A stretch of DNA of 64,000 nucleotides, taken from Escherichia coli (lineage in GTDB: Bacteria; Pseudomonadota; Gammaproteobacteria; Enterobacterales; Enterobacteriaceae). Below the pieces are notes generated by a model. That model was not told where the DNA came from. It saw only the letters and a list, made by a program, of their open reading frames with translations, and searched no databases. A program made the position numbers and the translations under genes. Shown here piece after piece: positions 27,928 through 29,043 of the stretch (within the stretch, counting starts at the first letter, position 1; each line of letters begins with the position of its first letter). The stretch lies in assembly GCF_003334785.1 (NCBI RefSeq), contig NZ_QOWV01000019.1. One strand, given 5' to 3'.

Positions 27928-29043
27928 TTAATGACGTTCAGGGAGGTCTGGCGTTTTGGCGGTTGCGGGTATAGGTGGTCTGACAGGGGAGCGAGGCCTG
28001 TTTTTCACCAGGTCTTCGTGAGTAACTTTTGGCGGTGTTTCATTTTTTACAAACAGTTTGAGGCTCCTGCGCGCCATATGTTTGATAATTTTATCATCAC
28101 TTAATGATGCTGGCATCAACACGTCATTCAAATCACTTTCATTGGGATTCATAAATTGGTGATAGTGCAATAACATATTGGCGAAAAATAAAAACAAGTT
28201 CTGAAAATGAGGAGATTCTTGTTCTGCTAAAAGGGATAAAAAGCAGATGCAGACTTCGGGTAGTACATGTTTGTTAGAACCTAATGAATCCATCAGGCTT
28301 TGCAACAAATCCTCTTTTAATTCGCTGTCCGTTATGTCGAGAATGGCGGTGATCAAGTTAGGATCTTTATTGACGAACCATCTGTGAACCTCAGAGTTAT
28401 TCCATAATCGGGGGAGTATGACAAAATTACCGCGAGAGATAAAATTCAGGACAAGCAAATCAAACTGGCGTAAGTAATCTGCAGCGGTATGGTGATCCGA
28501 AGGCAGGGGTTCAATATGTGGTGTATGCGCTCTTTTGATGGGAACACCAGGGTTGATCATTGGAAATTGTTCAATAAAATCATTCAGAAACAGAAAGAGT
28601 ACACGCTCGACGCCGGTCTGAAATACGCGCCCCATAGTGACAGGCTTTGGGTTGGGAGCGCAAAAAATATTAATTTCTCCATCATGGCGAAAATTATCTA
28701 AATAAATAGGGCTTAAATTTATTACTACCTGAAATTCAATATTTTCTTTGTGTCTTCCATTCCTGGCGGGATAAGTGAGTTTAAACTGAACCTTTTCATT
28801 GTATAGCGTGTCGTTACCCCGAAAAGAAGTCCTCTGAATATATGATAAGTTGTCAAGGTTATTAAATATCTTTTTTGTGGCTGAGTTGATGTTTAAAGAC
28901 GTGCGCCACTCTTCATTACATATTATTGTACTAAGTGCATCAATAAAATCCTTTAAAACTTCTTTTACCTGCGGTGCAATATTACGTACGGGAAAATCAT
29001 CAGGAAGAGATATGTAATTGCTGATGCTTACTGGCGTAACCAT
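27928..29043 (-). CDS. yneK: Uncharacterized AT-rich protein YneK, 371 aa
   Basis: ORF track; no recognisable motif; local composition markedly AT-rich relative to flanking genes. Confidence 0.7.
   Translation of the reverse strand: MVTPVSISNYISLPDDFPVRNIAPQVKEVLKDFIDALSTIICNEEWRTSLNINSATKKIFNNLDNLSYIQRTSFRGNDTLYNEKVQFKLTYPARNGRHKENIEFQVVINLSPIYLDNFRHDGEINIFCAPNPKPVTMGRVFQTGVERVLFLFLNDFIEQFPMINPGVPIKRAHTPHIEPLPSDHHTAADYLRQFDLLVLNFISRGNFVILPRLWNNSEVHRWFVNKDPNLITAILDITDSELKEDLLQSLMDSLGSNKHVLPEVCICFLSLLAEQESPHFQNLFLFFANMLLHYHQFMNPNESDLNDVLMPASLSDDKIIKHMARRSLKLFVKNETPPKVTHEDLVKNRPRSPVRPPIPATAKTPDLPERH

Follow-up and report, generated by a model that had tools for sequence, protein, structure and literature searches.

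yneK, a probable xenogeneic orphan gene of Escherichia bound by H-NS, bears the marks of past purifying selection and of present loss

We have analyzed yneK, a 371-codon gene in a 64,000-nt stretch of Escherichia coli DNA (contig NZ_QOWV01000019.1 of assembly GCF_003334785.1), which is referred to here as the window. yneK is very probably a genus-restricted, xenogeneic accessory gene; it is an annotated and known orphan. It is a real protein gene, kept by purifying selection across the whole divergence between E. coli and E. albertii, and it is dispensable and now repeatedly lost. As an orphan, yneK is ordinary and already known, and nothing about it suggests a novel type of system. What is new here is that past purifying selection goes together with widespread present decay; the exact insertion boundaries, the rewritten tail of the neighboring regulator PtrR, and direct evidence on H-NS are also added by this analysis.

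The gene lies between yneJ/ptrR upstream (29121..30002) and sotB/ydeA downstream (26588..27778), all three being in the same orientation, with gaps of 77 nt on the yneJ side and 149 nt on the sotB side. An earlier note on this stretch had described yneK as conspicuously AT-rich next to the neighboring core genes, and this is borne out by the computed composition. Its guanine-plus-cytosine (GC) content is 0.398 (39.8%), as compared with 0.513 for sotB and 0.535 for yneJ, and its GC content at third codon positions (GC3) is 0.395. When set against 34 long open reading frames (ORFs) of the window, which show a mean GC of 0.497 (SD, 0.038) and a mean GC3 of 0.513 (SD, 0.056), yneK stands at z = -2.6 for GC and z = -2.1 for GC3. 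It is the second most AT-rich of these long ORFs, only the one at 61118..61879 having a lower GC (0.394). Codon usage deviates as well, the fraction of rare codons being 0.059 in yneK vs. a window mean of 0.041. In composition and codon usage, yneK and the insert that carries it are thus unlike the core genes of the host. This AT-richness is a contrast with the flanking core genes rather than a feature unique in the window, because other AT-rich islands are present; 11% of the 1,274-bp windows taken across the stretch equal or exceed the insert in AT content. Stretches with a GC of 0.35-0.40 are found at 6001-8000, 11001-12000, 20001-21000, 46001-47000, and 61001-63000, and these may be further acquired or H-NS-bound segments.

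Comparison with relatives in which yneJ and sotB are directly adjacent defines the acquired segment to the nucleotide. As listed in Table 1, yneK is carried by an AT-rich insertion, which took the place of 19 bp where yneJ and sotB ancestrally met, within the 3' end of yneJ/ptrR. When the window is aligned to the empty site of E. whittamii (L011), homology stops at 29155 and restarts at 27880. The insert has a GC of 0.402, vs. 0.52 and 0.50 in flanks of equal size, and it consists of a new tail for yneJ (10 codons and a stop), the 77-nt spacer, yneK, and a terminal hairpin. Among 80 sotB loci fetched across the Enterobacteriaceae (one genome per species, a set that does not include E. fergusonii), yneK was found only in E. 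coli and E. albertii, while yneJ directly adjoins sotB in Salmonella enterica subsp. arizonae and diarizonae, several Citrobacter, Trabulsiella, and three other Escherichia species. The gene is therefore absent from the syntenic site in relatives, and its insert has definable boundaries. Since E. albertii exhibits the same insertion junctions and the same hairpin stem as the window, E. coli and E. albertii share one insertion event. The horizontal acquisition proposed in the earlier note is supported by both this phylogenetic distribution, which it had suggested checking, and the empty site in sister genera, where the window has a 1,274-bp insert of 40.2% GC between flanks of 50-52% GC.

Table 1. 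Features of the yneK locus, in window coordinates
Feature	Position	Strand	Basis
yneK coding sequence	27928..29043	minus	ATG start, 371 aa; ORF list and NCBIfam NF033404
AT-rich insertion, 1,274 bp, GC 0.402	27881..29154	minus	Local alignment to empty sites L009, L010, L011, and L025
Insert-derived 3' end of yneJ/ptrR	29121..29154	minus	Translated tails in occupied vs. empty loci
yneJ-yneK spacer, 77 nt	29044..29120	minus	Sequence and promoter scan
Hairpin just past the yneK stop	27880..27909	minus	9-bp stem CTCTGACGC/GCGTCAGAG
Ancestral sotB upstream region, kept beyond the insert	27779..27880	minus	Conserved box GATCACAAA...ATTGT...TTTTAAGATC and sigma-70 peak
Extended H-NS ChIP-chip region (MG1655, anaerobic)	27574..29822	.	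Mapped from PMC3688515 Table S3
IHF ChIP-chip region inside yneK	28179..28966	.	PMC3688515 Table S4, 1,613,921-1,614,708

As for H-NS, published chromatin immunoprecipitation (ChIP) data document its binding to the insert in vivo, which is the check that the earlier note had called for. Myers et al. 2013 (PMC3688515, Table S3) report an anaerobic H-NS ChIP-chip region in E. coli K-12 MG1655 at 1,613,065-1,615,313 (2,248 bp), which spans the yneK insert and, once mapped onto the window, is centered on it. The region belongs to the "extended" class, which the authors tie to filaments and to low RNA polymerase occupancy (PMC3688515). In the same table, the aerobic H-NS region covering yneK is broad (1,612,526-1,627,806; 15.3 kb). 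Within yneK itself, there is also a ChIP-chip region for integration host factor (IHF) (Table 1). The sigma-70 ChIP-seq peaks flanking the locus are at 1,612,749 (sad/yneJ) and at 1,615,025, ahead of sotB (approximately 27862 in the window); no peak is present between these two positions, i.e., none ahead of yneK (PMC3688515, Table S1). These coordinates follow an older MG1655 numbering. Their mapping onto the window was checked against coordinates from genomic SELEX (systematic evolution of ligands by exponential enrichment) and against the MG1655 record.

The evidence that yneK encodes a protein maintained by selection comes from the pattern of its divergence. We counted 150.7 nonsynonymous and 139.3 synonymous differences between the E. 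coli and E. albertii genes, which gives a ratio of nonsynonymous to synonymous substitution rates (dN/dS) of 0.166. Comparison with the divergent E. coli allele of locus L006, the product of which shows 84% amino acid identity, gives a dN/dS of 0.148, and values among intact E. coli alleles are mostly 0.09-0.27, the two most similar pairs having too few differing sites for a meaningful ratio. Of the 290 differences that separate the gene from that of E. albertii, 79, 59, and 152 are at codon positions 1, 2, and 3, respectively, and the 371-codon frame is open across the 26% nucleotide divergence between the two species. When 290 differences were introduced in unconstrained simulations, none of 5,000 replicates remained free of stops, the mean number of stops being 8.5. 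Constraint varies along the protein, with dN/dS ranging from 0.07 to 0.31; the ratio is lowest in residues ~150-270 (0.07-0.12), where constraint is strongest, and highest in residues 270-360 (~0.3). Neighboring genes show a dN/dS of 0.005-0.057, and the YneK protein evolves 3- to 30-fold faster, though under evident constraint.

Present-day copies of yneK are nevertheless broken in a large part of the species. A megablast search of 5,426 complete E. coli genomes found a trace of yneK in 5,418, with at least 80% of the gene covered in 4,263. A deletion of yneK nt 86-1097, detected with a junction-spanning query at ≥98% identity, is present in 1,116 of these genomes (20.6%), and it is carried by the B2 archetype CFT073. 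To estimate how many copies are intact, we sampled 30 records in even steps down the ranking of 5,420 matching records. Thirteen copies (~43%) are intact, eight of which were verified by annotation and translation, while five are inferred to be so, their length being unchanged and their identity ≥99.6%. Disruption is seen in the remaining 17 (~57%): six are B2-type deletion remnants, five share a 1-nt deletion at nt 377 (one of them with a second 1-nt deletion at nt 849), two have a stop at codon 263 (O157:H7 included), and one each has a 1-nt deletion at nt 996, a stop at codon 285, an IS1 insertion, or an IS903B insertion with a deletion. yneK therefore does not qualify as an E. coli core gene, of which nearly all strains would have an intact copy. 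E. albertii is affected by decay as well, because yneK of its type strain (NBRC 107761 = DSM 17582; locus L046, 4727-5842) has a nonsense codon at position 86. Truncated forms of YneK are found in Shigella sonnei, and there are at least nine independent inactivations in all. In butanol-evolved laboratory strains, yneK-ydeA-marC was deleted, an event whose effect was attributed by the authors to marC (10.1101/143792). Finally, on a gut metagenome contig of 2,029 bp (L107), yneK is cut after approximately nt 108 and followed by a cassette with 33.6% GC at positions ~270-1900, which encodes a 290-aa fusion protein matching phrog_11520 (E 5e-32) and a 157-aa HATPase_c_4 (PF13749) protein. On this contig, the yneK spot has been reused by other foreign DNA.

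Homology searches leave YneK an orphan without a recognizable motif, in line with how the 371-aa product was described in the earlier note. The protein matches the NCBIfam equivalog model NF033404 ("putative protein YneK") over its entire length, residues 1-371 aligning to model positions 1-371 with 812.3 bits for a curated cut-off of 40 bits. This model was built from the orthologues of yneK itself and carries no functional information. There is no significant match in Pfam, where the best hit is DUF1140 with an independent E value of 0.34. A single YneK sequence has no match among Protein Data Bank (PDB) sequences, and the best hit of a 10-sequence profile has an E value of 0.45. Likewise, there is no family match in PHROGs (best E value, 0.063), and no PADLOC match for YneK of the window, a SAVED-domain model reaching a non-significant E value of 0.0046 for the E. 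albertii protein only. A phmmer search of 1.84 billion cluster representatives returned 47 matches, all of which are YneK or fragments of it, those of low identity being frameshifted E. coli assemblies of yneK. A word-seeded search of ~5.8 billion proteins retrieved the identical 22 proteins with a single sequence and with the 10-sequence profile, all from E. coli, Shigella, or E. albertii. A tblastn search found no match to YneK in 50,697 phage records and, in a plasmid collection, only mislabelled E. coli chromosomes and fragments. An Rfam scan of 27400-29500 gave only a sub-threshold miRNA match. One of the E. coli-type sotB loci is filed under a different phylum: on contig SMXE01000224.1, entitled "MAG: Caldithrix sp. 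isolate CR04bin15" (L008), the products of glsB, sad, yneJ, yneK, sotB, and marC are 100% identical to those of the window. This is K-12-type E. coli contamination in a metagenome-assembled genome (MAG).

YneK has a mass of 42.8 kDa and a pI of 6.4, and with a maximum 19-residue hydropathy of 1.17, it shows no transmembrane segment; it is probably a soluble cytoplasmic protein. The structure prediction and fold search that the earlier note had suggested yielded poor models and no informative fold match. Two AlphaFold2 runs, based on alignments of 4 and 10 sequences, gave a mean predicted local distance difference test score of 44.1 and 45.3 and a predicted template modeling score of 0.31 and 0.34, respectively. 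Both runs nonetheless produced the same layout, with a disordered stretch (residues 1-22), helices (24-61), a β-meander (66-127), helices at ~137-158 and 187-204, a helical bundle (217-333), and a disordered proline-rich tail. Foldseek searches of the PDB gave meaningless matches only (CorA, with a root-mean-square deviation above 22 Å and a TM score of ~0.1), and those of AFDB50 returned only YneK itself, orthologues superposing on each other with a TM score of ~0.3. The fold is not assignable because the YneK family is too shallow. A central segment (residues ~145-215) is highly conserved and rich in invariant His, Glu, and Asp, and the residues invariant in E. coli, the divergent allele, and E. 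albertii include H120, C128, H173, H176, E178, H184, H185, D189, C265, C267, and H279. From conservation, we consider a metal-binding or hydrolase-type center a tentative and rather doubtful possibility. In the tail, the motifs RPRSPV and KTP are invariant, although they lie within the fastest-evolving C-terminal region.

The papers found agree with the description of yneK as uncharacterized in the earlier note, as what they offer is confined to one association without correction and one screen result that was not validated. In a pan-genome study, yneK was associated with adherence to bovine recto-anal cells, but the association failed multiple-testing correction, and the authors suspected linkage (PMC11540155). 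Because B2 carries a fixed deletion and the gene tracks phylogroup, yneK is in this case likely a lineage marker rather than a cause. More generally, the presence or absence of yneK largely tracks phylogroup, and hits to it in pan-genome associations are likely to be lineage markers. In a screen for host factors of VchCAST, a yneK hit was not validated in a single mutant (PMC12757027). A mention of yneK in nucleoid proteomics was set aside, as it refers to a Bacillus subtilis gene of the same name and not to E. coli yneK.

How these findings may fit together can be outlined as follows. Early in the history of Escherichia, in one lineage, foreign AT-rich DNA with one ORF and a terminal hairpin entered yneJ/ptrR at its 3' end, and the promoter region of sotB was left unharmed on the downstream side. 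H-NS would nucleate filaments on the insert and keep yneK essentially silent in ordinary growth, and YneK would act only in a niche that lifts the silencing. In strains that do not use this niche, the gene would drift to inactivation. yneK is one of the K-12 y-genes without a functional clue, and the evidence shows it to be foreign, H-NS-bound, under past selection, and now being lost. A phenotype is best sought under derepressing, host-associated conditions, in strains with an intact yneK.

Several points weigh against this account. One concerns the distribution within Escherichia. In a tree of five flanking genes, the order of branching is Salmonella, E. albertii, a clade of L009, L010, and L011 (the latter being E. 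whittamii), Escherichia sp. MOD1-EC7003, and E. coli. The three species L009, L010, and L011, which at this locus branch off after E. albertii and before E. coli, keep an intact ancestral empty site. Because of this, a simple gain is not sufficient, and recombination or ancient transfer between lineages must be added. At least two events are needed, a gain and either the replacement of an allele by recombination or an ancient exchange between lineages. For yneK, the synonymous divergence (dS) separating E. coli from E. albertii amounts to 1.18, which is no lower than that of the flanking genes (0.64-1.23), and a recent transfer is therefore ruled out. MOD1-EC7003 keeps the left junction of the insert (…VPD and stop), followed by 65 nt of sequence without a match, which looks like a secondary deletion. 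The searches point to no donor of the insert, with no homologue outside Escherichia and none in phages or true plasmids, and the insert bears no mobility signature, since its ends show no terminal inverted repeats and no target-site duplication, and it contains no integrase, transposase, or other mobility gene. Long-term purifying selection and widespread present loss pull in opposite directions and can be reconciled only by assuming that selection is niche-specific or was recently relaxed. With regard to H-NS, the aerobic 15-kb block says little alone, and while binding is documented, we infer from it the silencing of yneK itself. Finally, no biochemical activity of YneK is backed by homology or by a reliable structure.

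Divergent copies of the locus add to the picture within the genus. On a human gut metagenome contig (L006), yneK (179-1294) is 85% identical in DNA to that of the window, with a dS of 0.58, while sotB (1442-2632) is 95.5% identical, with a dS of 0.20; this yneK is a divergent allele of long standing or else was imported from an Escherichia lineage outside those sampled. In 101 complete E. coli genomes, yneK identity is below 95%. The record NZ_JAATUR010000028.1 (L009), although entitled Escherichia coli strain SCPM-O-B-8794, has a locus without yneK that is ~11% divergent from K-12, and it clusters not with E. coli but with E. whittamii and Escherichia sp. E1V33. Its sotB is unusually close to that of E. 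coli, with 93.9% identity, while sad, yneJ, and marC of this strain reach 87-89%, a difference suggestive of local recombination.

An alternative is that YneK is a cryptic T3SS (type III secretion system) substrate or effector, akin to IcaR (YjgL) and IcaT (YfdF), and that it would be kept where a T3SS of the LEE, ETT2, or pINV-like type is or was in use and would decay elsewhere. We regard this as very improbable. As an AT-rich chromosomal orphan that is non-functional in B2, yneK does have the profile of icaR and icaT, and its attrition is like that described for ETT2 (PMC9241512). It is also present in E. albertii, which is a T3SS-positive species, and the protein itself has an N terminus with no charged residue before position 15 and 44% Ser, Thr, Pro, Asn, or Gln over residues 2-26, as well as the invariant proline-rich RPRSPV and KTP motifs in its fastest-evolving C-terminal region. 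However, 4 of the 33 other window proteins score as high in N-terminal composition, and Pfam and PDB searches reveal no similarity to a known effector. What is more, yneK is a pseudogene in the sampled LEE-positive O157:H7 and O111:H11 and is truncated in Shigella sonnei, which is the opposite of what characterizes a used effector. Nor is there an MxiE box with up to three mismatches anywhere in the 64-kb window, when scanned with the consensus GTATCGTTTTTTTANAG. A related idea, which we find just as hard to credit, is that YneK is a dormant host-interaction protein, gained early in Escherichia and eroding where its cognate T3SS has fallen out of use, the PRSP and KTP motifs of its tail mimicking eukaryotic short linear motifs.

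Two further readings can be weighed. That yneK is a non-functional chance frame, or a long-dead pseudogene, in junk foreign DNA and was annotated merely for its length might be suggested by its being broken in ~57% of the sampled E. coli and in the E. albertii type strain; by its lack of homologues, domain, or confident fold; by H-NS binding without an upstream sigma-70 peak; and by there being no validated phenotype in the literature found. It is made very unlikely by a dN/dS of ~0.15 in three independent deep comparisons, along with an excess of third-position changes, and by a frame that has stayed open through 26% divergence, when all 5,000 simulations gained stops (mean, 8.5). The uneven conservation along the protein (dN/dS, 0.07-0.31) is what one would expect of a folded protein. 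It is even less probable that a degraded mobile element left yneK behind as its surviving cargo, or that the gene comes from an anti-phage defense or toxin module that settled in a recombination hotspot. Reuse of the spot in L107 by a cassette with phrog_11520-like and HATPase_c_4 genes, the IS1 and IS903B insertions inside yneK, and the very nature of the insert, a single AT-rich gene of unidentified origin, all fit such a module. Yet YneK has no partner gene, and its insert is devoid of integrase, transposase, terminal repeats, and target duplication. There is no significant PADLOC or PHROG match (at best, the SAVED-domain E value of 0.0046 for E. albertii only), no tblastn match in the 50,697 phage records, and the plasmid matches are mislabelled chromosomes or fragments.

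yneK, in our preferred reading as a xenogeneic accessory gene, can be compared with three known systems. The genes icaR (yjgL) and icaT (yfdF) are orphans of ~35% GC, whose products are secreted by Shigella via the T3SS under the control of MxiE (Silue et al. 2022, PMC9241512). Phylogroups A, B1, D, and E have orthologues of them, which B2 largely lacks; the genes are silent in K-12 and often disrupted (PMC9241512). Like them, yneK is a single low-GC chromosomal gene without informative homology that is disrupted in many strains. In contrast to yneK, icaR and icaT have a working MxiE box and encode proteins shown to be T3SS substrates; in contrast to icaR and icaT, yneK is shared with E. albertii, and B2 holds a deletion remnant of it, which is not a simple absence. 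As in H-NS-silenced xenogeneic DNA (PMC3688515), the yneK insert is AT-rich, absent from sister genera, and covered by an H-NS region of more than 1 kb with no sigma-70 signal at the 5' end. However, typical H-NS-silenced islands are multi-gene and have known functions or mobility genes, while the yneK insert is a single gene in 1.3 kb with no mobility signature and, unlike such islands, it rewrote the C terminus of a neighboring regulator. Similarly to ETT2 (PMC9241512), yneK is low-GC acquired DNA that is intact in some lineages, eroded independently in others, and missing from B2, although ETT2 occupies a different locus and is a large island encoding a secretion system.

The rewritten regulator deserves a closer description. 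The last 10 codons of yneJ and its stop come from the insert and replace an ancestral tail of the type TSLEQHETAK followed by a stop. In all genomes without yneK, the match to YneJ, the full length of which is 293 residues, ends at residue 282-292, usually at 282-286. The insertion therefore altered the C terminus of PtrR/YneJ in E. coli relative to its relatives, and the tail of this LysR regulator in E. coli and E. albertii is unlike that in Salmonella, Citrobacter, and the three other Escherichia species.

On the other side of the new yneJ stop, the spacer shows no consensus sigma-70 promoter in a promoter scan. The scan as a whole gave no enrichment of promoter-like sites (6 observed for 4.0 expected). 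yneK is preceded by a weak Shine-Dalgarno sequence (GGGG), 5 nt upstream of its ATG. In vitro genomic SELEX has found NtrC and the RpoH holoenzyme to bind the yneJ-yneK spacer and the RpoS holoenzyme to bind at the start of yneK (PMC8743547, PMC5493296). Past the stop of yneK, the hairpin folds as RNA (27866-27935) with -26.4 kcal/mol and z = -4.57; E. albertii has a conserved stem but a diverged loop. There is no T-run after it, and a terminator scan found no canonical intrinsic terminator. In the ancestral region beyond the insert, the junction alignments show conservation of the box upstream of sotB from Salmonella through E. coli.

Two minor observations concern the identity of the window and the surroundings of the locus. 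From yneJ to sotB, the window is collinear with E. coli K-12 MG1655 except for one base, window position 28064, which is changed from C to G on the coding strand and leads to T327S in YneK. The exact T327S protein is on record from only nine contigs, and because of this and of the single-base difference, the window is K-12-like rather than the reference sequence. A few kilobases from yneK, there is a second presence/absence polymorphism after marB. The window has an ORF, apparently eamA, directly after marB, whereas CFT073 (L106, 8170-12501) has a sugar-uptake cluster of a 6-phospho-β-glucosidase, a carbohydrate porin, and phosphotransferase system (PTS) genes, and E. albertii (L002, 10539-13143) has the glucosidase and porin only, before that locus ends.

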